DNA of 42,110 nucleotides. It comes from a virus (Duplodnaviria > Heunggongvirae > Uroviricota > Caudoviricetes). Every line of letters begins with the position of its first letter. The first letter of the stretch is position 1. Positions 1,356 through 24,660 of the stretch are shown here, one piece after another. Location: positions 1-42,110 of IMG/VR virus record IMGVR_UViG_2541047875_000007; one strand, written 5' to 3'. Made by a program: the position numbers and the translations under genes. The notes below the pieces were generated by a model. That model did not search any database and was not told the origin of the DNA. It saw nothing but the letters and a program-made list of their open reading frames with translations.

Positions 1356-3839
1356 CTACATTGCCATTAATATAAACATAGCCAATTCGTCATAACGAAT
1401 TCCGTAGCGTCCACCTGCTTTTTTTACAAGAATCATATTTCCTGTTTTATATTGAGAATAAATTTTCTCACCTGTATCAGGATCTGTGCTCTCTTCAGTT
1501 ATCACCTCTTCATCCCATACGTCTGGCCATTCATCGTAACACCAAAAAGCATATTGCTCAGGATTTAAACCACGCTTTCTAAGAATATCTCCTACGGTTT
1601 GAGCGCCAACTCCAAAATGATACCTTGATAACTCCAATCCTTTAAAATTAATCGACTCATTAAACCTGAACTTGCATATAATTCCCTTTATTTCCAGCGC
1701 AGCATCACGCTCTGCCTGAGTAATGTCATATATTGTTTTAAGTGTTTCATCTGATGTGCTTATAGTCCCGGATGCAGAATAAATCTGAGCCCATCTAAAT
1801 GATGGTGCACCAAGAGATTTGCTGTTATCAATAATTGGTGAAAAATTACCTTTAATGGCAATATTTCCAGAGTCGCCGAATATATTAATAACTGTAGAGT
1901 CATCACCATGGTTTTTTACGCTTAAGTTTCTTGATGAAATATTTATATCTTTGTTATATCCACTAACATTAATCCATCTTTTACCATCAATGTGATACCC
2001 GTAAATATTTCCGTTTGATTGTTCGTCAGGTGACTCTCTAAGAACAATAGCATCTACTCCAGACGACCATTGTATTTTTGTATCTGTAGGCCTCCAGTTC
2101 TTTATAATGAACGAACCATCAGTAAACTCCGTTTTTATTTGTCTATTGTCTACAAATGCGTCTCTTGGTTTAAACTCACTTGTGTTAACGCTGCTCTGAA
2201 GATCAGAAGCAAAAAATCTAAGATTTCCTGTATAACCCTGAGTCTCGGTCAGGTTATACGCAATCATAATTCCATTTTCAAACTCAGATGATGTTATTTT
2301 AACATCACGGCAATCACCAAAAATGCAATTTCCTTTATCAAATGTTGTTTGAGCTTTGAATTTATCAAACCTTAAATTACGAACAGGGAAACCATCAACC
2401 TCTAATGCAAAGGATGCAGGAAGGCCAAAGTATTCTGATGGCTTACCTGATGTATGATCAAGAGTAGTGGCTACTGTATTCTCAAAAACAGTCCCGCTAA
2501 AATTATTACCAATTGACGGAAACCTGATTACACTTATTGTACCTTGTATTTCAGGAGAAATACCAGATAGTGTGATGTTAGTTCCATCAAATGATGCATC
2601 TGAATACGTATATACTGATTCACTGCCAGCAATTTTAAACTGTTTAACTGAAGTTATTCTCATCGACTTTTTATGTTTAAATGTCACTGAGCTTTCAGTA
2701 TTACTTACAAGATCAATCTGAGGGCTATTCCTTATCGCGATTCCTGACTGGACATAAACGTTATTAAAGTGCGTTTTTTCAGGATTTCCCTTCATTGAAA
2801 GGCTCCCGTCATTTTCTGTCAGTAGTAGTCCTTTTACCCTCCAATAGCCGACAATCTGTACGTTATCAATAACTGAATCACAGCTATCGTATACATGCAA
2901 CCCTATATCCCAGTTATCACCCAATGAATAAGAATCAGGGTTATTGTATCCTTCAATACCATTTTTACTTACCATTATTCTCAGATTGCGTAACTGTGAT
3001 GCCCTGTTGATACTAACAGCTACGCTCATGGCTTTTGGTGTAGCAGGAGTAACACCTACAGAATCTTCATTCGTAAACTCAGTGAACTTACAAGATATCC
3101 CTTCAACAATTTTAACCGGTCTTTCATTAGAGATGTTAAAAAAATATTTGTTTTTTTCTCCATCACCAGTAAATACAAGATGGGTTCCTTTACTCCAACT
3201 TTTTAATAATCTTTCAGGCGCTGGTCTATATGTATCCCAATAATCAATGCCAGATCCAACCAGTGAACACCCCTCAGGAATGTTAATATTCTTCTTGATG
3301 ATGCATATTCCTTCCGGAATTGTTATAACCGACCTTCCAGAGTTTAAAGCTTTAATAAAAGCATCTGAATCATCTGTTTCCCCATCTATTTTTGCTCCCC
3401 ACCCTCTAACATCTCCACAATCTCTCCATCGTGCCATCTGCAACTCAGGATATTTTTTAGCGCCATCTGGATCTTCTAATTGCTGCCGTAGCTGATCGGG
3501 GTCATACTTCAGCACATTGGGAAAATAAAACTGCTGCGCACCATACGCATCATAAACAGCCATAGAATGGCCTTGCACGGTAACGAATTTGGCAATCTGT
3601 CCGTTATATACCGGATATCCGGCAGCGTTAATGATGATTGGTTGCGAAACAGGAACGTGAGAGCCGTCTTCGTTCTCTACATAAACCTGAATCTGGTTTT
3701 CTGGATTTACCGGGTCAGTGTCAATTTTACCGATATAAATTTTGCCATTGGCATTTGCTTTAAACGAGCGAGCTAAAGTAAATAACTGACTTGGTTGTGA
3801 AACAACTACGTTGTATAATTGTTCTGGCATAATAAACAT
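1356..3839 (-). CDS. Tailspike protein: P22 gp9-type N-terminal head-binding domain, divergent central beta-helix receptor-binding domain, C-terminal intramolecular-chaperone (peptidase S74-like) domain
   Basis: 827-aa ORF. N-terminus [11 protein letters not shown]...[40 protein letters not shown]...[14 protein letters not shown] matches the P22/HK620/Sf6 tailspike head-binding domain. C-terminal region contains TSTSDETLK...[13 protein letters not shown]...[10 protein letters not shown] resembling the S74 chaperone motif. Confidence 0.9.
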
Positions 3840-5366: not shown

Positions 5367-5434
5367 GTTGGTTTTTCTCCACGAATTTACTGACAACAGA
5401 AGCCCTGACTGTTCCCGCAGTTGGGGCTTCAACT

Positions 5435-16052: not shown

Positions 16053-16946
16053 TTATTTTTTTGCCTTTTTAGCGGCGAAATACGGCGTCCAGTCACCAGT
16101 TTCCAGCGCCTTGGCTTTCAATTTGCCGAGGTTGTTGATTACTGCGCCGTTGCTCCCCTTAACTGTCGGGGTTGTGGCTGCCGTGGTTTTTGCTTTTGGC
16201 ATGACTCTGGCCTTCGATTCGATACGTTCCAGCAGACGACCAATTGCTACGGGGTTGGTAGCTTCTGCCAGTTGCTTGCGCAGTTCAGCGTTGCGACCGA
16301 GCGCCAGAACAACGATTTCCGGCTTCTCTGACTCAAACAGGATCGCGTTTTGTGTCTCGATGGGGATTTCCTCGAGTACGGCCTGTTCTGCTTCCTGATA
16401 GCCAGGAACTTTGAGAGCCTTAACACGTTGCTGATATTTGGATAATCGCTCTTGATAGGCAGCCTGAAGCTCCTGCTCCTTCTGCTTGCGAGCCATCTCC
16501 TGTTGCTGGTACTTGCCGTTATCCTCTGCCCACTTAGCCATGCGTTGCTGGTAGATTTCTTCATCGAAACCGATGTCCTCATCATCCAGTTTTGGCATTC
16601 GCGGTGGTTGAGTTATTACCGGCTGCTGCTCGACGGGTTTCTGAGACTGACGCATCAGCTCTTTCAGCTCGCGGTCTTTCTCTTTAATCGTCTTGCGCAG
16701 GTGTTTTACCAGTCCATGCTCTGCGCCATCTTCGCTGGTTGGCGAATCCAGCTTTTCGTCACCAAAGTAGAATTCCTGTTCTGATTCGTCGTCATCAGTT
16801 TCAGTAGCTTCCTCTGCATCATTGCCGGAGGACTCACTGCCATCTTCTGTTTCGACTTCTTCAGCCAGTTCGACATCATCAGGAATCTGCTCTGACGCGT
16901 CGGTTTCGATTTCAACTTCTGGTGTGTTTTCTGCCATCTGGTCCAT
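16053..16946 (-). CDS. Scaffolding protein
   Basis: 297-aa highly charged E/K/Q-rich helical protein between portal and coat. Confidence 0.85.
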   Translation of the reverse strand: MDQMAENTPEVEIETDASEQIPDDVELAEEVETEDGSESSGNDAEEATETDDDESEQEFYFGDEKLDSPTSEDGAEHGLVKHLRKTIKEKDRELKELMRQSQKPVEQQPVITQPPRMPKLDDEDIGFDEEIYQQRMAKWAEDNGKYQQQEMARKQKEQELQAAYQERLSKYQQRVKALKVPGYQEAEQAVLEEIPIETQNAILFESEKPEIVVLALGRNAELRKQLAEATNPVAIGRLLERIESKARVMPKAKTTAATTPTVKGSNGAVINNLGKLKAKALETGDWTPYFAAKKAKK

Positions 16947-17036: not shown

Positions 17037-19235
17037 TTACTGCTGTGGTTGTTGCTGAGTTGATTTTTGCAGGATGCTGCTGATGTCCATGCGCTGCGCA
17101 TGACCCTGTGCCTGACTTTTCAGGACAAGCTCTGCATCAGCACGGGCATTGTCTCCTTGCTGTTGCTGGAACTGTCCGAGCAGTTTCAGAGCCTCGCGGA
17201 TATCAGATTTCTGCTGGCTATCGGCAGATGCGAGGATTTTCACAACATTTGCCGCTGCAACCTGAGCATCAGTCTGTGCCTGGAATGCTTTAACCTGAAT
17301 GGCTGCCTGTTCGTTCTGCGCTTTCTGCAATTCAGCCTGACCAGCAAGAAGCTGACCTTGCGCAGCAACCATAGCCGGATCTGGCTGACTGGCCTGTTGT
17401 TGTTTCGCCTGCTCAACCATCTGCTGTTCTTCTGGCGTTCTCGGCTTGATAACTCCAGACAGAAGCAACTGATTGCGGTTGTATTCTTTCAGGTCGTCCA
17501 TCCCTTCTCCGTCCATATTGTCGAGAATCATCGACGATACAAGGTCGTGCTTCGGCGTCCCTGGCGGGATAAGTGCCAGCATGGAAAGTAACGACTTAAC
17601 CGTTGCATCACGGCGAGTAGCGAACGACTGACCGACATCGACAGTCACTTCGTAGTTACCCTGCGAAAGGTCGTTAAGCGCGATAACCTGCCCTGTCTGA
17701 CGGTCAACCACTTCACCAGTCATCAGCGCCACGTCATCGCTGCCGTCCTCATTAACGATACGCATCGGCGTATCGCTGCCATAGACTTCACGCGCCATAG
17801 AAAGCCACACAACGCCAGCGCGACGCATAGATTTAGCCATGTTGTCCATGTAGATATAGGACTGCGTGTCCATCCGGTTAAAGATGCTATCAACGGTATC
17901 GGTGGCGACGTTGCTCGGCATGTTCTCAAGCTGCGACGCACCTGTAATTTGCTGAATAGCCGTTCCGGTGTACTGCAATAGCCCGGCAAGAGCTGGAGGC
18001 ATTTGTGTCGGAGGCGTATAACTGCTGACCTGAGCCTGCGCAGTAATATCTCCGTTTTTGTTTTTCAAACTGACCATCGGCAGGAACGCCGGGCGCTTTT
18101 TGTTGCGCTCCGCCCAATGAGTGGCAAGAGGACCAGGAATCATGTCAACATCAACTACAGGAATGCCATCACCGCCAGCCTGAGTAGCGTTATCTGCAAT
18201 CATGGAAACCATCAGGTTCTCAAGACGCTGTGCATCCATCGCTTTTGCTGCGTGGCCTTCGATTCGCTCCTGATTATCAACAAATGAACGACGCCCATAT
18301 ACCGGGATGAGAGGAATATGTTCGCCCGGAATACGCTTCGGTTCTTCCAGCCATTCAGCGCCAGACAGAAGACCGCAATAAACTCGGCGTTTCTTCACCG
18401 TTCGCTCGCCAATCAGTTCGAATGCACCATCGGTCAGCTCGTCGACAATATCTTTGATTTGCTCTTCATCATAGATTGCCGTTTCTCCGCTGACAGGGTT
18501 ACGCCATGCTGTGAGCTTCACCTTCTCTATGCGAACTTCGTAGTAGCGACCAACATAGATAGCATCAGGAGTTGACCAGTCATATTGAGTGCCAGTGTCA
18601 TCACGAGAAAGGCTTGCCGCGATGGAATCAGGGTATTCAGCCTCGAACGCTTTAGGCGTCATGGAGAACATTTCCATAGCCCACATAGCATCAGAGCGGT
18701 CATATTGCTTGCTGTCCTGATCGAAGAAGACGCATGTCGCTGGGTCGTAAACAGGAAGAAGGCTGATGCGTCGCTGCTCGTTACTCGGATCCATTTCATC
18801 TTCGTAATCGGCACACATGCGGAAACAACCGAATCCGCCCGTTACAGCATCATCAAATGCGTTATCACACGCTTCGCCACCGGATGTTTCCTGATAGTCA
18901 GCGCGGAATTTGCCGTTCATCTTTTCGGCTAACGCTTCCGATGCCTTGTCATCCTTCGGCCTGAATTTAACGCTGATGCGATTCTGTCGATACTCGCCAA
19001 TGATGCGATCACATTCACGGGCAATCTTATTCAGCTCAAAGCGCGGGTAATGCTCAAACCTGCCTTCATCAAATGAGTAACCAGCGTTTGTGCTGCCTTC
19101 CCACTGTGCGCCGGACACCCGGACGAAACGTTGAGCTTCAATAATCTGCTCACGCATATCCTGCGTTGCTGACCAGGCATTATCAAAGTTGCACAGCACC
19201 TTGCGATGCCAGTCAGTCATCTTTTTTTCTGCCAT
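17037..19235 (-). CDS. Portal protein
   Basis: 732-aa ORF downstream of the large terminase with a Q-rich C-terminal barrel-like tail; P22 portal is about 725 aa. Confidence 0.9.
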   Translation of the reverse strand: MAEKKMTDWHRKVLCNFDNAWSATQDMREQIIEAQRFVRVSGAQWEGSTNAGYSFDEGRFEHYPRFELNKIARECDRIIGEYRQNRISVKFRPKDDKASEALAEKMNGKFRADYQETSGGEACDNAFDDAVTGGFGCFRMCADYEDEMDPSNEQRRISLLPVYDPATCVFFDQDSKQYDRSDAMWAMEMFSMTPKAFEAEYPDSIAASLSRDDTGTQYDWSTPDAIYVGRYYEVRIEKVKLTAWRNPVSGETAIYDEEQIKDIVDELTDGAFELIGERTVKKRRVYCGLLSGAEWLEEPKRIPGEHIPLIPVYGRRSFVDNQERIEGHAAKAMDAQRLENLMVSMIADNATQAGGDGIPVVDVDMIPGPLATHWAERNKKRPAFLPMVSLKNKNGDITAQAQVSSYTPPTQMPPALAGLLQYTGTAIQQITGASQLENMPSNVATDTVDSIFNRMDTQSYIYMDNMAKSMRRAGVVWLSMAREVYGSDTPMRIVNEDGSDDVALMTGEVVDRQTGQVIALNDLSQGNYEVTVDVGQSFATRRDATVKSLLSMLALIPPGTPKHDLVSSMILDNMDGEGMDDLKEYNRNQLLLSGVIKPRTPEEQQMVEQAKQQQASQPDPAMVAAQGQLLAGQAELQKAQNEQAAIQVKAFQAQTDAQVAAANVVKILASADSQQKSDIREALKLLGQFQQQQGDNARADAELVLKSQAQGHAQRMDISSILQKSTQQQPQQ

Positions 19236-19236
19236 A

Positions 19237-20652
19237 TCAACCTACACCACAAGGAATTGAGTAACTGGAATAGTCGGGTTGCGCAGCCGACTCCGGGCAA
19301 TGCATACACATCATCAACGCATCAGCCAGGTTAGGAGATGGAATACCGAGCTTCTGCTTCATTTCGACCTTAGTCATTAGCTCCAGCTTCCCGTTATTAT
19401 TGAATTTGCGCTGAATCTGCGTCAGTTCTGCAAACAGCTTCTCCAGCATCTTCTCGCCTATCGCTTCTTTGTCGAAACTCAGCATGTCGTCTGGGTCTGC
19501 ATACTCACCGTAGACAACCGCCCGATATGTCAGATACAGCCTGTCAGCCAGCGCGTAATAGAATTGCGCTCGCTTATTGCGGAATACATCGCCAATAGTG
19601 CGAACATTGTCGCCCTGTACGACTTCATCAGCCCATGCTCCGGCCTGATATGGCGCATCTTCATCGAATGGCGATTCGCTGCCCTTGAACATCGTGGCGG
19701 TGATTTTCTTGCCGGAGAACGCTTCCGTTGTCTGCCTGCGTAGCCCGGCACCAACACCATCACCATCCCACAGGTAGTGGTCAGCGCCGTCTTCAATCGC
19801 CAGCGAAGTAGCCCAGTCAGCACCCTCGTTGATGTCCATCAGCAGACCTTCGGCAATGCGCTTAACTACCGAACCGTGGCGCGATGCATAACCTTTGGCA
19901 TCCGGCCCTGTATCTGATGGGTCATGCGCAGAGACAACAGCGCCTTTCGCTTTCCATCCGAGTTTCTTGTGCGCATCGGTAGCAGCTTCAAGCCATTCAC
20001 GTTTGATGATTGCCATATCACTTGCGCTTACTGGCTCACCAAGCCAGATGTGACGATACAGTGTCGGATTTCTGCGTTTGCACTCTTCCATCTCCAGACG
20101 GAGAACTTCAGGAAAGTGCGGGTTGTCGGTGTAGTTCACCGTCAGCAGACAAATATCATCAGGAGGGTTTACGACGAATCGCTGATAGGTATCGTCGAGG
20201 ATGTTTTTCGGGTTGAAGCTCACCCATATTTCGGAAAACGGCTTGCGGATGGTTGGTATCAGGATGTCCCATGATTCCTTCGTTACCGCTTCCGCTTCTT
20301 CCACCCAGCAGATATCAATGCCTTCGAGCGATTTAATCTTCGTCGGGTTGTTTTTTATGCCGTAGAACATGAATTCAGCATTCGTTCCGAGATGACGAAT
20401 CATTGAACGCTGAATTTCAAACTCAGCCGAATACCCTTCCCGCTCTATGGTGTCTTCAAGCAACCGGATTACCGAATCGCTGATACTGTTTTGCAGTTCA
20501 CGAGCGCAGAGAATACGCACTGGCTGCCGACGCGCCGCTTCAACAAGCAGCCTCGCAATTGCCCATGATTTACCGCTACCTCGACCGCCTTTGGCGACTT
20601 TGTAGCGATGCGCCTCAATGAACGGTTCAAAGATAGGATTAATCGAGGTCAT
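19237..20652 (-). CDS. Terminase large subunit
   Basis: 471 aa; Walker A GGRGSGKS near the N-terminus; nuclease domain in the C-terminal half. Confidence 0.95.
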   Translation of the reverse strand: MTSINPIFEPFIEAHRYKVAKGGRGSGKSWAIARLLVEAARRQPVRILCARELQNSISDSVIRLLEDTIEREGYSAEFEIQRSMIRHLGTNAEFMFYGIKNNPTKIKSLEGIDICWVEEAEAVTKESWDILIPTIRKPFSEIWVSFNPKNILDDTYQRFVVNPPDDICLLTVNYTDNPHFPEVLRLEMEECKRRNPTLYRHIWLGEPVSASDMAIIKREWLEAATDAHKKLGWKAKGAVVSAHDPSDTGPDAKGYASRHGSVVKRIAEGLLMDINEGADWATSLAIEDGADHYLWDGDGVGAGLRRQTTEAFSGKKITATMFKGSESPFDEDAPYQAGAWADEVVQGDNVRTIGDVFRNKRAQFYYALADRLYLTYRAVVYGEYADPDDMLSFDKEAIGEKMLEKLFAELTQIQRKFNNNGKLELMTKVEMKQKLGIPSPNLADALMMCMHCPESAAQPDYSSYSIPCGVG

Positions 20653-21074
20653 TTTCCGAATAGAGTGCTCATCGGTGATGTTTCAATCTGGATTGCGCCG
20701 CCGTCCTTACCGACAAGCTCGTTAGTTACCTTGTCGCCATACTTACGGGGATTCATTCGGGCCAGCGCCCATTTGCGGGTATCAACGCGAAGTCTTGCCT
20801 TTGCCACCTCAGCAGCATCTGGAATCGCAGTGTCAGCAATTTCGAATATCTCTTCGAAAATAGAATCAGCTCGTGCCTCAGTTGCCTTCGCGTACTTGTC
20901 TCTAAATTCTTCATGCTCTGACAGCCAGCGAAATACAGTAGCCTTTGCTGGCATGCCGGGGCGCTTGCAAACCTTAACCAGACTTTCCCCGGAGGCAAGC
21001 AGCGCACAGATATCATCAGCCACCTCCGGCAGGTAATCCGAAGGGCGACCGACATTCTTTTTCTCAGTCGCCAT
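20649..21074 (-). CDS. Terminase small subunit (Sf6 gp1-like)
   Basis: 141 aa, MATEKKNVGRPSDYLPEVADDICALLASGESLVKVCKRPGMP... closely matches the remembered Sf6 small terminase. Confidence 0.9.
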   Translation of the reverse strand: MATEKKNVGRPSDYLPEVADDICALLASGESLVKVCKRPGMPAKATVFRWLSEHEEFRDKYAKATEARADSIFEEIFEIADTAIPDAAEVAKARLRVDTRKWALARMNPRKYGDKVTNELVGKDGGAIQIETSPMSTLFGK

Positions 21075-21153
21075 ATTGATTATTTCCCTTCTGCTTGCTT
21101 ATCCCATTCATCGCGGAATTTGGATGGGTTGTCGAAACCTTGAGTTGCCATGT

Positions 21154-21396
21154 TTATGCTCCGGTAGTGAACAGGTCTAACGCTTCCTTCGATTTACGCA
21201 CCGCTTCGATAGTGCGGGTCGTGATATCTGAATTAGCGCCACCTGACTGGAAGTGAATTTTGAATAGCTCAAGCTTCAGTTCGTCAGTACCAATGAACTG
21301 AAATGCTTCTTCTGCGGCTGCGTTCTGGTTCATGACCAGCTTGTAAATCTCTAACTGGAATTTCTGTTCTTCAGTCATGGGAATAATCTCTGCCAT
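21154..21396 (-). CDS. Hypothetical protein (80 aa) upstream of the terminase genes
   Basis: ATG with GGAG 7 nt upstream. Confidence 0.55.
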   Translation of the reverse strand: MAEIIPMTEEQKFQLEIYKLVMNQNAAAEEAFQFIGTDELKLELFKIHFQSGGANSDITTRTIEAVRKSKEALDLFTTGA

Positions 21397-21652
21397 TGTT
21401 GGCTCCGTTTATCCGTTAAAAGGGATATCAGTTAAGTTATCCCGTGTAGGGTATAAGCCATTGTCGAGACCACTCATTGAATGGTCTCTGCAATAACCGA
21501 TGTCTTTCCATCAGTCCGCCACCACAAAGAATCTTTTTTGCCATAAGGCAGGAGGTTCATCTTTCAGTGGCTGCCAGTGTTATTTCCCCACTTACTGGCT
21601 TGGGTTGTTTCGTGGTACTGCCGTAATGCAAAAACTGGATTAACCTGCGAAA

Positions 21653-22183
21653 TCACACCATTCCGGGCAAATACATTTGCACTTCATTTGCCGCTCTCTC
21701 ACGTGCAACATGAAGCAATCTTTTTCGCCCACCAACGCCCCACTTAGCCATTTGGCTTGCGCACTGGCTTATCGCTTTGGTTTCAGTATTGATGATGTGA
21801 TCTATTCTATTCAGACGGGACATTGCGCCAACGCCGAGACGGACAACCGTTTTGAAAACTTCATAAACTTCGATTTCAAATTCCGGCTTAATCCATGCTG
21901 CATATCTGATTGCCAGAAGTTCAACACCCCACACACCTGGTTCTGCACCACCTTTGATTATTTTAAGTGGTTGAATTTGTTCCAAAGTGCTTTTTTGCAC
22001 TTTGGCCTCCAGTGCTTTTATGAAGCGTTTTATCTGCGCGCTACGCAAAAACTGGCTTGGGCGCTGTTGCTCTGTAGCCTCTCCATTTGCAACTGCTGCT
22101 GCATGGAGATCGTTTAAGTTGTAGCGTCCATCCTCATCAACACGAACGGACACACCATTGACAATAACTGTTGGGTACTTCAT
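21653..22183 (-). CDS. KilA-N domain protein
   Basis: 176 aa; LNDLH...RPSQFLR...GVWGVELLAIRYAAWIKPEFEIEVYE fits the KilA-N pattern. Confidence 0.65.
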   Translation of the reverse strand: MKYPTVIVNGVSVRVDEDGRYNLNDLHAAAVANGEATEQQRPSQFLRSAQIKRFIKALEAKVQKSTLEQIQPLKIIKGGAEPGVWGVELLAIRYAAWIKPEFEIEVYEVFKTVVRLGVGAMSRLNRIDHIINTETKAISQCASQMAKWGVGGRKRLLHVARERAANEVQMYLPGMV

Positions 22184-22329
22184 CAGTGATCACCTTTTAG
22201 TGATGAACCTTGTCACACAGGATTCCGGCCCACAGAAAGGCACCGATCACCAAACCGGCATCCTCAAGGGTCATCCTGAAAGGTTCTGTGTTCATAAGTC
22301 GCGCGTGTGAAGCGCGTTTACTGCGGACA

Positions 22330-22353
22330 TAAAAAAGCCCCGCATCGCGAGGC
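22330..22353 (-). terminator. Candidate intrinsic terminator downstream of the lysis cassette
   Basis: Minus strand GCCTCGC-GAT-GCGGGGC (one U-G pair) followed by TTTTTTAT. Confidence 0.4.
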
Positions 22354-22385
22354 TCATTAAATGGACTTTGTGATTTGCAAAAAAA

Positions 22386-22823
22386 TTATTTCAGGCACTG
22401 AGTCCTGATGTACTCCTGCAGGTAGTTAACCTGCGCGGTTATCCTGTCGATTCCAATTCGGAGACGGTAATAATTGAGTTCAGCATCTGCTGTAAGTCTT
22501 GGGCTTTCTCCATTGCCCATGCCGCTGGCTCCGGTCGTTGACTTTGCACAGGTGGCGGCGACTTGCAGGCGCTTACGACCAGCAGAAACATCAGCACGGA
22601 GACTTTCGATAGTCGCGTTAGCATCAGCAAGCTCCTTTGTGTATCTGGCGTCAAGTTCTGCTACATCACGTTGACGCTTCTGCATGTCAGCGATTGTGGA
22701 TGTGGCTTTATCGCGCTGCTCTTTGTAGGCGATGGCGTTATCACGGTAATGATTGACCGCCCACGACAGACAGACGACGATGCAGATAATCAGAGCAGAT
22801 ATAATCGCGGTTACTCTGCTCAT
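22386..22823 (-). CDS. Rz: Rz i-spanin
   Basis: 145 aa, N-terminal TM segment then coiled-coil; immediately after R; start overlaps the R stop. Confidence 0.85.
22439..22624 (-). CDS. Rz1: Rz1 o-spanin, embedded in the +1 frame of Rz
   Basis: ATG 22624 with AAGGAG 7 nt upstream; lipoprotein signal ...[10 protein letters not shown] followed by Pro-rich segment, like lambda Rz1. Confidence 0.7.
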
Positions 22824-23296
22824 ACCTCAATCTCTCTGACCGTTCCGCCAGCTTCTTTGAATTTTGCAATCAGGCTGTCAGCCTTATGCTCGAACTGGCC
22901 ATAACCAGCGCCCGGAAGTGAAGCCCAGATATTGCTGCAACGGTCGATTGCCTGACGAATATCGCCGCGGTCAATCATCGGTAAAGCGCCACGCTCTTTA
23001 ATCTGTTGCAATGCCACAGCGTCCTGGCTTTTCGGAGAGAAGTCTTTCAGTCCAAGCTGCTTGCGGTAGGCATCCCACCAACGGGAAAGAAGCTGGTAAC
23101 GTCCGGCTGCTGTTGATTTGAGTTTTGGGTTTAGCGTGACAAGTTTGCGAGGGTGATCGGAGTAATCAGTGAATAGCTCTCCGCCAACAATGACGTCATA
23201 ACCATGATTTCTGGTTTTCTGACGTCCGTTATCAGTTCCCTCCGACCACGCCAGCATATCGAGGAACGCCTTACGTTGATTATTGATTTCCACCAT
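22820..23296 (-). CDS. R: Endolysin R (lambda-type lytic transglycosylase)
   Basis: 158 aa, [39 protein letters not shown]... essentially identical to lambda R from memory. Confidence 0.95.
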
Positions 23297-23603
23297 CTTC
23301 TACTCCGGCTTTTTTAGCAGCGAAGCGTTTGATAAGCGAACCAATCGAGTCAGTACCGATGTAGCCGATGAACACGCTCGTTATATAAGCGAGATTGCTA
23401 CTTAGTCCGGCGAAGTCGAGAAGGTCACGAATGAACCAGGCGATAATGGCGCACATCGTTGCGTCGATTACTGTTTTTGTAAACGCACCGCCATTGTATC
23501 TGCCGCGAAGGTACGCCATTGCAAACGCAAGGATTGCCCCGATTCCTTGTTCCTTTGCCGCGAGAATGGCGGCTAACAGGTCATGTTTTTCTGGCATATT
23601 CAT
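23280..23603 (-). CDS. S: Holin S (lambda class I holin with dual-start motif)
   Basis: 107 aa, [39 protein letters not shown]... matches lambda S; Met1-Asn2-Met3 dual start. Confidence 0.95.
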
Positions 23604-24036: not shown

Positions 24037-24660
24037 CTAACGTGTGACCGCATTCAATATGTTGTCTGCGATTGACTCTTCTTTGTGGCATTGCACCACC
24101 AGAGAGTCATACAGCGGCTTAACAGTGCGTGACCAGGTGGGTTGAGTAAGGTTTGGGATTAGCATCGTTACAGCGCGATATGCGGCGCTTGCTGGCATTC
24201 TTGAATAGCCGACACCTTTGCATCTTCCGCATTCTTTCTCAACAACTCTCCCCCACTGCTCTGTTTTGGCTATATCAACCGCACGGCCTGTACCGTGGCA
24301 ATCTCTGCATCTTGCGCCCGGCGTCGCGGCACTACGGCAATAATCCGCATAAGCGAATGTTGCGAGCACTTGCAGTACCTTTGCCTTAGTATTTCCTTCG
24401 AGCTTTGCCACACCACGGTATTTCCCCGATACCTTGTGTGCAAATTGCATCAGATAGTTGATAGCCTTTTGTTTGTCGTTCTGGCTGAGTTCATGCTTAC
24501 CGCAGAATGCAGCCATTCCGAATCCGGCTTGTGATTGTGCCATCCCCATAGCAGCCATCACATCAGTACCGGAAAGAGAGTCAGACGCCGTGGCCCGTGG
24601 TGAGTCACTCATCATCGGGCTTTTTGGCGAATGAAATTTAGCTACACTTTCGAGTCTCAT
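24037..24660 (-). CDS. Q: Late antiterminator Q (lambda-type)
   Basis: 207 aa, MRLESVAKFHSPKSPMMSDSPRATASDSLSG...CRDCHGTGRAVD... essentially identical to lambda Q from memory. Confidence 0.95.
   Translation of the reverse strand: MRLESVAKFHSPKSPMMSDSPRATASDSLSGTDVMAAMGMAQSQAGFGMAAFCGKHELSQNDKQKAINYLMQFAHKVSGKYRGVAKLEGNTKAKVLQVLATFAYADYCRSAATPGARCRDCHGTGRAVDIAKTEQWGRVVEKECGRCKGVGYSRMPASAAYRAVTMLIPNLTQPTWSRTVKPLYDSLVVQCHKEESIADNILNAVTR

Follow-up and report, generated by a model that had tools for sequence, protein, structure and literature searches.

In lambdoid phages, morons in the sense of Juhala and Hendrix are accessory genes carried in the late operon, the bor gene of lambda between Rz and cos being an example. 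In several P22-like phages the genes at the joint between the lysis and packaging modules have been named, as hkbK-hkbL-hkbM-hkbN in HK620, rha-orf25-orf80-orf59c in P22, and genes 65-68 in Sf6, which lie between its Rz/gene 15 spanin gene and the gene for its small terminase subunit. A third described system that bears on this region is the Proteo-phage-1 RNA motif, RF03044 in Rfam. Its source is Weinberg et al. 2017 (PMC5737381), a paper whose main text does not discuss the motif; our literature search returned no paper on Proteo-phage-1 or RF03044. Here, we analyze the interval between the Rz spanin gene and the gene for the small terminase subunit (TerS) in a tailed-phage sequence of 42,110 nucleotides (IMG/VR record IMGVR_UViG_2541047875_000007, the whole of which is called the window). 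An earlier note on this DNA had described positions 21075-22385 as a cargo island, and all of the features that it listed are present, on the minus strand like the rest of the late operon: a KilA-N domain protein gene, a 256-bp non-coding stretch (21397-21652), an open reading frame (ORF) of 80 amino acids (aa), and an ORF of 23 aa with the peptide that had been quoted (MATQGFDNPSKFRDEWDKQAEGK; 21080-21151), to which we add an ORF of 32 aa at 22197-22295. We consider it probable that the interval is an ordinary mosaic joint of lysis and packaging modules in a lambdoid, P22-like late operon. The cargo-island aspect adds little, as lambdoid phages, P22-like ones included, are already known to be mosaic where the lysis and terminase genes meet, and KilA-N genes are common there. 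Two details are modestly new: the slot has, as its fixed right edge, a minimal core of the Proteo-phage-1 type, and a 23-residue protein is encoded by a conserved gene that annotation misses.

The gene-order comparison with Sf6 and HK620 that had been proposed gives the same order and orientation with different cargo, and P22 agrees. The non-coding block and the DUF2560 gene that follow the cargo (hkbM, orf80, and gp67 in HK620, P22, and Sf6) are 92-98% identical between these phages and the window at the nucleotide level. According to their annotations, HK620, CUS-3, UPF_BP1, P22, epsilon34, ST64T, Sf6, Dewey, and Huey share one skeleton, namely, Rz/spanin, (terminator), variable gene(s), non-coding block, DUF2560, small ORF(s), and TerS, and HK97, HK022, Stx phage 1717, and SPN3UB have its first part before other packaging genes. 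As the skeleton is common to P22-like phages (HK620, P22, and Sf6 among them), the late operon is not unusually loose at this point, contrary to what had been suggested. The earlier note had named, as the finding that would count against its island, the same arrangement in all relatives with characterized housekeeping roles; the arrangement is indeed shared, and none of its genes has such a role. What differs is the cargo, a 176-aa KilA-N protein in the window, hkbK plus hkbL in HK620, Rha plus ORF11CD3 in P22, and only the small gene 65 ORF in Sf6, which has, in addition, gp66 inside the block. The position before TerS also differs, being taken by the 23-aa gene in the window and by a 59-aa gene in HK620 (hkbN) and P22 (orf59c).

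The exchangeable part of the interval has precise limits. Its left edge is an intrinsic terminator (22329-22355, minus strand), which had been reported as a terminator-like hairpin at 22330-22353 and consists of a stem (22355-22335) and a T6 run that extends to 22329. Located 30 nt past the Rz stop codon, it has a 9-pair stem (6 G-C), a 3-nt loop, U6, and a folding free energy of -14.1 kcal/mol, that is, the G+C-rich hairpin and U tract of a rho-independent terminator, and the records of epsilon34 and Emek have terminators annotated at the equivalent position. In pairwise mapping against phages with different cargo, homology ends at 22354, the foot of the terminator, and restarts sharply at 21624-21626, regardless of what lies upstream; in CUS-3 and epsilon34 homology begins again exactly at 22354. 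Given these junctions, the exchangeable cassette (21627-22354, minus strand) measures only about 0.73 kb and comprises a 150-nt leader and the KilA-N gene. Megablast of the region found 432 phage records, none of which spans 80% of it in one piece, a signature of mosaicism. The whole cassette is collinear with Salmonella phage UPF_BP1 (90.7% identity over the 22418-21134 alignment and 92.6% for the megablast piece) and also with Salmonella phage S.Inf 5-2. The cargo island therefore stands as a real exchangeable slot but not at the size first given to it, as the terminator, about 230 bp of the gap, and the DUF2560 gene are backbone in nearly all relatives.

We collected 131 loci from IMG/VR and GenBank that carry the conserved non-coding block. 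An Rz homolog lies upstream of it in 114, at a distance of about 100-1550 bp from the Rz stop codon to the block, and across these 114 loci the slot holds around nine or more unrelated gene families. Among its contents are Rha+ORF11CD3 proteins, the 176-aa KilA-N allele of the window (15 of the 114), KilA-N+P63C, Tad2-like proteins (PF11195), GIY-YIG/T5orf172 proteins, an HNH endonuclease, and hkbL-like proteins, and 15 loci have no ORF of at least 45 aa, including ST64T, in which the gap from Rz to the block is 106 nt. The Tad2-like slot protein, of 159-173 aa with a Thoeris anti-defence 2-like domain (PF11195, 3.9e-26), was seen in Huey (L010, 1937-2437), in L053, and in three other IMG/VR loci, and the Huey record labels the protein at the position equivalent to that of KilA-N "anti-CRISPR." Two further points of the backbone are variable. 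One lies within the block near 21498 and is occupied by gp66 (PF13876) in Sf6-type phages, with another insertion of P22 nearby (21438-21410); this gene of the Sf6 gp66/N4 gp49 family lies at 2152-2532 of the Sf6 locus (L008), and 45 of the collected loci are split at the position equivalent to 21498. The other is the spacing between DUF2560 and TerS, which falls into three classes of about 260 bp (nothing), 320 bp (the 23-aa ORF), and 440 bp (hkbN/orf59c).

Like the lambdoid morons, the KilA-N gene is an accessory gene at the same place of the late operon, is missing in some relatives, and has a lower G+C content (about 43-47% across 21150-22200 and 50-55% in the flanks). A classical moron would be transcribed autonomously from the prophage and give the lysogen a fitness trait, and besides its composition, the cassette has in its favor that cargo-less relatives (ST64T and the 14 other loci without a sizeable ORF) have the elements on either side of it next to each other and that genes of the anti-defence type (Tad2-like) occupy the slot in relatives. 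In contrast to morons, the cargo of the window has neither a predicted promoter of its own nor a terminator after it. A scan of the minus strand for the sigma-70 consensus predicted no promoter between the terminator and the KilA-N start (22335-22184) or in the gap (21397-21652, for which promoter prediction had been proposed), although such a consensus scan would miss a weak or activator-dependent promoter, which is to be weighed against our reading. The only strong terminator (22355-22335) precedes the cargo; downstream of KilA-N just a weak hairpin and a U4 run are visible, at about 21437-21408, within the 5' untranslated region (UTR) of DUF2560 and not listed by the terminator scan. Furthermore, KilA-N is oriented with the late operon, and its stop codon is 27 nt from the block. 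Autonomous expression is thus an improbable account of the cassette. With no predicted promoter and the sole terminator in front of the cargo, we infer that the late transcript, antiterminated by Q, also covers the cargo.

The right edge of the slot is the conserved block of about 230 bp (21397-21626, minus strand), which makes up most of the 256-bp gap and is composite, with an RNA motif in its left part (21626-21499) and the 5' UTR of DUF2560 in its right part (21497-21397). Some 200 phage records, among them those of HK97, HK022, and the mEp siphoviruses, contain it at 92-99% identity, and it has been kept in front of different head modules (P22-like, HK97-like, and HK022). Folding of the stretch as RNA gives a z score of -3.8, and in cargo-poor enteric relatives a G+C-rich hairpin is found about 40 nt upstream of it. 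That the gap encodes a protein was considered and rejected: its longest ORF has 35 aa and no Shine-Dalgarno sequence, and the absence of 3-nt periodicity, together with indels of 1 and 2 nt, makes a coding remnant unlikely. The block recalls the "boundary sequences" (bsq) that the records of Sf6 and CUS-3 place near the Q-S junction and within Rz, in that both are short, conserved, and located at module junctions, where they could anchor homologous exchange; unlike those, the block carries no bsq annotation and holds a structured-RNA motif that is also found outside the lambdoid group.

The core of this motif (21569-21604, minus strand) is formed by a hairpin, a conserved loop, an A-rich linker, and a pseudoknot tail. 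In the hairpin, CCC (21604-21602) pairs with GGG (21589-21587) around the loop AAGCCAGUAAGU, so that positions 21604-21587 read CCC[AAGCCAGUAAGU]GGG, and the A-rich linker is followed by the tail CUGGCAGCC. The loop segment GCCAG (21599-21595) is complementary to CUGGC of the tail (21577-21573), which makes a candidate pseudoknot. The RF03044 model of Rfam has its best sub-threshold match here (21569-21640, 21.7 bits, with E values of 0.42 over 1.6 kb and 0.079 over 301 nt), and within the window element it is concentrated in the conserved loop and tail of the family. The second hairpin of RF03044, with its conserved loop AAGCCGGnnAGU(G), is present in the window, as is the 3' tail AAaAACaCCGGCAGCC able to pair with that loop, here as AAAUAACACUGGCAGCC. 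The element thus shares with Proteo-phage-1 the hairpin with loop AAGCCGGnnAGU, the A-rich linker, the tail AACnCCGGCAGCC, the context of a phage late operon, and a loop-tail pairing that is kept through a double change. It differs in its score (true members reach 49-84 bits), in the lack of a clear P1, and in a P2 stem of only 3-4 bp, as well as in its position, which is in the middle of the operon after a cargo gene, whereas about half of the diverse contexts place the motif directly after a terminator.

By pattern scanning of IMG/VR, we obtained two sets, one of more than 120 enterobacterial copies that are nearly identical and one of 80 diverse copies from other Proteobacterial phages, and five of the ten representatives of the diverse copies that were run against Rfam passed its threshold, with 49-84 bits. 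A covariance model (R1) was built from 33 non-enteric instances only, among them bona fide RF03044 members, and gave a single significant match on the 42-kb window, at 21564-21644 (29.6 bits, E of about 1.6e-5). The second-best match of R1 in the window (16171-16256, minus strand, 13.5 bits, E of about 0.1), which contains AAAAACCACGGCAGCC and lies 3' of the portal gene, whose end is well upstream, is probably due to chance. In an alignment of 54 distinct sequences that was fitted to the model, 92.7% of the cells were paired, compared to 78.5% in shuffles and 20-43% in slid-partner controls. Two helices covary, with changes on both sides in 9 of 10 pairs, and the core hairpin (helix 3) was 94.5% paired over its five pairs, four of which show changes on both sides. 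In the loop-tail pseudoknot, a single pair varies, most sequences having G-C and the enteric lineage A-U at that place. Among 62 unique enteric copies, the core (21604-21569) is almost invariant and the least variable part of the block, with no triplet periodicity. An RNAalifold consensus computed on a MAFFT alignment picked only the invariant loop-tail pairing and was uninformative, as those bases were fixed by the search pattern.

In the diverse set, a canonical terminator ends 15-130 nt upstream of the motif in 24 of 50 unique contexts, and the genes downstream are those of holin and spanin or of terminase subunits, a context that marks the motif as an element of late operons. It might be the PR' leader ("6S-like") RNA of its host phages; no sigma-70 promoter was found upstream of the copy in L136. 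That locus was the only one of 20 with a tRNA association (2854-3011), tRNA-Gly and tRNA-Met being located about 110 nt downstream of the motif, and another (L189) carries two Proteo-phage-1 copies about 1.6 kb apart on the minus strand, at 280-369 and 1905-1992, with 66.8 and 48.9 bits, respectively. We also observed an extra hairpin just 3' of the end of the Rfam model, at 2744-2790 of L136 and in equivalent places of RF03044-type loci, the arms of which appear, by eye, to covary (for example, CGCGCACCCUGG...CCAGGGUGGCGCG), and in the L143 group a U run comes after the extra hairpin. The 82-nt Rfam model may therefore be shorter than the natural RNA.

Several observations weigh against a functional RNA in the window. 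The element is well below the gathering score of RF03044 (21.7 versus 42 bits) and has no convincing P1 hairpin: in the P1 region, with a 5-bp outer helix and an inner helix, the model aligns GUUUU.../...GAAAC with mismatches, partly outside the block and in a segment that varies with the type of cargo. The pseudoknot is backed by one compensatory change only, and 13 enteric copies of the IMG/VR pattern set have an A-C mismatch at that very pair. As the instances behind R1 were retrieved by a sequence pattern, the conservation of loop and tail within the set exists by construction. The identity of the block in recently exchanged phages is no higher than that of the neighboring genes and is thus, by itself, no proof of constraint. 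The block also tolerates inserted genes, being split in Sf6 (at about 21498), in Huey, and in P22 (21438-21410), and in SPN3UB, which retains only 49 bp of the block, the motif itself is cut and remains in truncated form.

Of these observations, the sub-threshold Rfam score, the identity similar to that of the flanking genes, the splitting by insertions, and the shortened block of SPN3UB, together with the short ORFs that have been called on the block (Dewey CDS 73 and 74, P22 orf25, and the N terminus of ST64T orf118), are what could be expected if the gap were functionless as RNA, a recombination linker or a decayed gene that recent exchange has kept similar, with the motif match as a relic. 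However, no part of the block varies less than the core, unrelated Proteobacterial phages share its loop and tail sequences and have covarying stems, the inserted genes all leave the motif-bearing left part intact, and the block has been retained across three kinds of head module. We regard a functionless gap as rather unlikely, if not negligibly so. The alternative that we favor, in which the left part of the block would have been kept for being a cis-acting structured RNA of the Proteo-phage-1 kind, with hairpin and pseudoknot, is taken up again below.

The other novelty is the 23-aa ORF (minus strand), located between DUF2560 and TerS. Its ATG has a GGAG 7 nt upstream, and 5 nt separate its stop codon from the ATG of TerS. 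Searching by tblastn within the phage collection, we traced a family of 23-27 aa with the pattern G-F/S-D/N/Q-N/K-P-x-K/Q-F-R-D/E/K-E-W/L-D in 16 phage records, including Emek, HK544, Pm34, Brookers, PSTNGR2lys, MStein, and ES2. All but one of the homologs inspected have a Shine-Dalgarno sequence of their own, and identical copies of the peptide are found in 17 related loci from public collections. The ratio of nonsynonymous to synonymous differences (pN/pS) was 0.13-0.66 in all 21 pairs of homologs, with synonymous differences near saturation. The neighborhoods are varied. In Emek, the homolog lies inside the conserved block, before DUF2560, and the HK544 copy is at the corresponding position of its record; in the Proteus phages Pm34 and Brookers, it comes just after the post-Rz terminator; in the Providencia phage PSTNGR2lys, it follows a terminator-like hairpin among neighbors that are all annotated as hypothetical; in Cronobacter ES2, it is located between Q and the lysis genes; and a further neighborhood is that in an N15-like Enterobacter phage.

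The earlier note had taken this ORF for a possible leader of TerS, in which case its translation would regulate TerS and the peptide itself would be irrelevant. The distance of 5 nt between stop codon and ATG and the location of the TerS Shine-Dalgarno region inside the 3' end of the ORF make a coupling to TerS physically plausible. A regulatory leader is marked by an unconserved peptide and one fixed downstream gene, and the ORF has neither: its amino acid sequence is under purifying selection, and the homologs in Emek, Pm34, Brookers, PSTNGR2lys, and ES2 are not in front of TerS. CUS-3 and HK620, on the other hand, have a TerS of the Sf6 type or a related one without the 23-aa ORF, and there are no runs of regulatory codons in the ORF and no attenuator downstream. 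A role as a mere leader is thus highly improbable. From the pN/pS values and the varied neighborhoods, we conclude that the ORF is a genuine gene for a protein and forms a small mobile unit rather than a leader specific to TerS.

The gene is unannotated in most records and was not called by PGAP. In two of them, another frame that overlaps it has been annotated instead, orf53 of Emek (L213, 1490-1651) and gp6 of Pm34 (L215, 1461-1607), both probably misannotations. Against Pfam DUF2740 (PF10872), the peptide reaches 13.2-13.6 bits (E of about 0.06), below the 27-bit cutoff, and three diverged homologs match the same segment of the profile (19-32 of 43). A kinship with DUF2740 can be taken only as a lead, and the literature search found no paper on that family.

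Regarding the remaining genes of the interval, the cargo gene of the window (21653-22183, minus strand) codes for a 176-aa DNA-binding protein with a KilA-N domain at residues 9-113 (PF04383, 64.8 bits over a cutoff of 23.8) that matches phrog_129, annotated as "transcriptional regulator" (1.6e-60), and it is preceded by the Shine-Dalgarno sequence AAGGTG. Between the terminator and this gene, the 32-aa ORF (22197-22295, minus strand) has a hydrophobic stretch, and its match is limited to the C-terminal part of phrog_16173 (positions 23-54 of 63). UPF_BP1 has a 54-aa ORF here that starts before the terminator hairpin, and a 4-nt deletion in the window breaks the N-terminal frame; the 32-aa ORF lacks a good Shine-Dalgarno sequence, was not called by PGAP, and is doubtful as a gene.

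The 80-aa ORF (21154-21396, minus strand) codes for a DUF2560 protein (PF10834, 1.1e-43, 147.7 bits over a cutoff of 25) homologous to P22 orf80, HK620 hkbM, and Sf6 gp67. It is found downstream of the block in 97 of the 131 loci and is part of the shared backbone, not of the cargo. The family is restricted to Enterobacterales and forms 93 clusters, of which many are truncated or chimeric. The AlphaFold (AF2) model is a four-helix protein (pLDDT 82) for which searches of the PDB and BFVD gave no informative structural match, and the literature search on DUF2560 gave nothing useful. In HK97 (L005) and HK022 (L011), the block and the first 27 codons of DUF2560 are kept and are followed by a divergent 45-aa ORF before an HNH endonuclease (2729-2866 in both), so that a mosaic junction lies inside the DUF2560 gene and the resulting 45-aa ORF is unannotated.

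The window is a P22-like (Lederbergvirus) prophage of Escherichia coli, with positions 21040-22420 being 100% identical to the chromosome of E. coli FDAARGOS_1256. Among complete E. coli genomes, the full arrangement is found in 54 of 5426, and portions of it are found in 2804. The late operon runs on the minus strand from the Q gene (24037-24660), 3' of which, and 5' of the holin gene, there is a PR'-like promoter (23994-23966, TTGACT-17-TAAATT), the presumed origin of the late transcript that spans the Rz-TerS interval. It is followed by a 13-bp terminator before the holin gene (tR', 23932-23904) and by the genes of the holin (23280-23603), the endolysin (22820-23296), and the Rz i-spanin (22386-22823; Pfam Phage_lysis, 2.4e-36), the last of the lysis cassette. 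The Rz1 lipoprotein frame, with the lipobox LLVVSAC, is embedded in Rz (within the ORF 22439-22654), as annotated likewise in the records of CUS-3, P22, and Sf6. Past the interval, the packaging module begins with a TerS of the Sf6 type (20649-21074; PF20901 Sf6_terminase, 9.6e-45), followed by the large terminase subunit TerL (19237-20652) and the portal gene (17037-19235), all on the minus strand. The PGAP name of this TerS is "hypothetical protein," despite a PF20901 match at 1e-44. At gathering thresholds, Rfam has no match in the Rz-TerS interval; its sole match in the window is the sar antisense RNA (5367-5434, plus strand; RF00262, 91 bits over a gathering score of 43), which indicates that the prophage has a P22-type immI (ant) region. 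A search of the whole window with ARAGORN gave no tRNA or tmRNA. The papers on epsilon34, phage L, and Salmonella prophage transcriptomes held nothing specific on the lysis-terminase joint.

Putting these elements together, Q-modified RNA polymerase coming from PR' would read the whole interval on the minus strand, ignoring both tR' and the post-Rz terminator, and the cargo would be a late-expressed accessory gene and not a moron expressed in the lysogen. In the prophage, the post-Rz terminator would keep unmodified polymerase out of the cargo and the head genes. Co-resident lambdoid phages may exchange cassettes by homologous recombination in the conserved flanks. The motif in the left part of the block could, as a guess, have a role in the processing or stabilization of the downstream head-gene message, and the 23-aa ORF would be a separately mobile microprotein gene whose translational coupling to TerS in this phage would be happenstance. 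The bolder claim that combines these points, with the block as a functional cis-acting late-operon RNA (a minimal Proteo-phage-1 pseudoknot) and a fixed anchor for cargo swaps and the 23-aa ORF as a functional, mobile late microprotein gene, is one that we advance tentatively, as possible.

If it is true, the RNA of the block might act as a processing or stability element, or as one that binds a factor or the polymerase, sustaining the head-gene message. In many Proteobacterial phages, the motif marks the start of late or packaging transcription units, often right after a terminator. With its precise conserved edges and the Tad2-like genes found in relatives, the slot is a good place to mine accessory genes. 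An orphan Rfam motif gains a genomic context, that of late-operon leaders, often after a terminator, and is extended, in minimal form, to hundreds of enterobacterial prophages. Finally, the lambdoid phages of six genera (Escherichia, Salmonella, Proteus, Providencia, Cronobacter, and Enterobacter) share a conserved, unannotated family of 23-residue proteins, which is sometimes hidden by annotations in the wrong frame.

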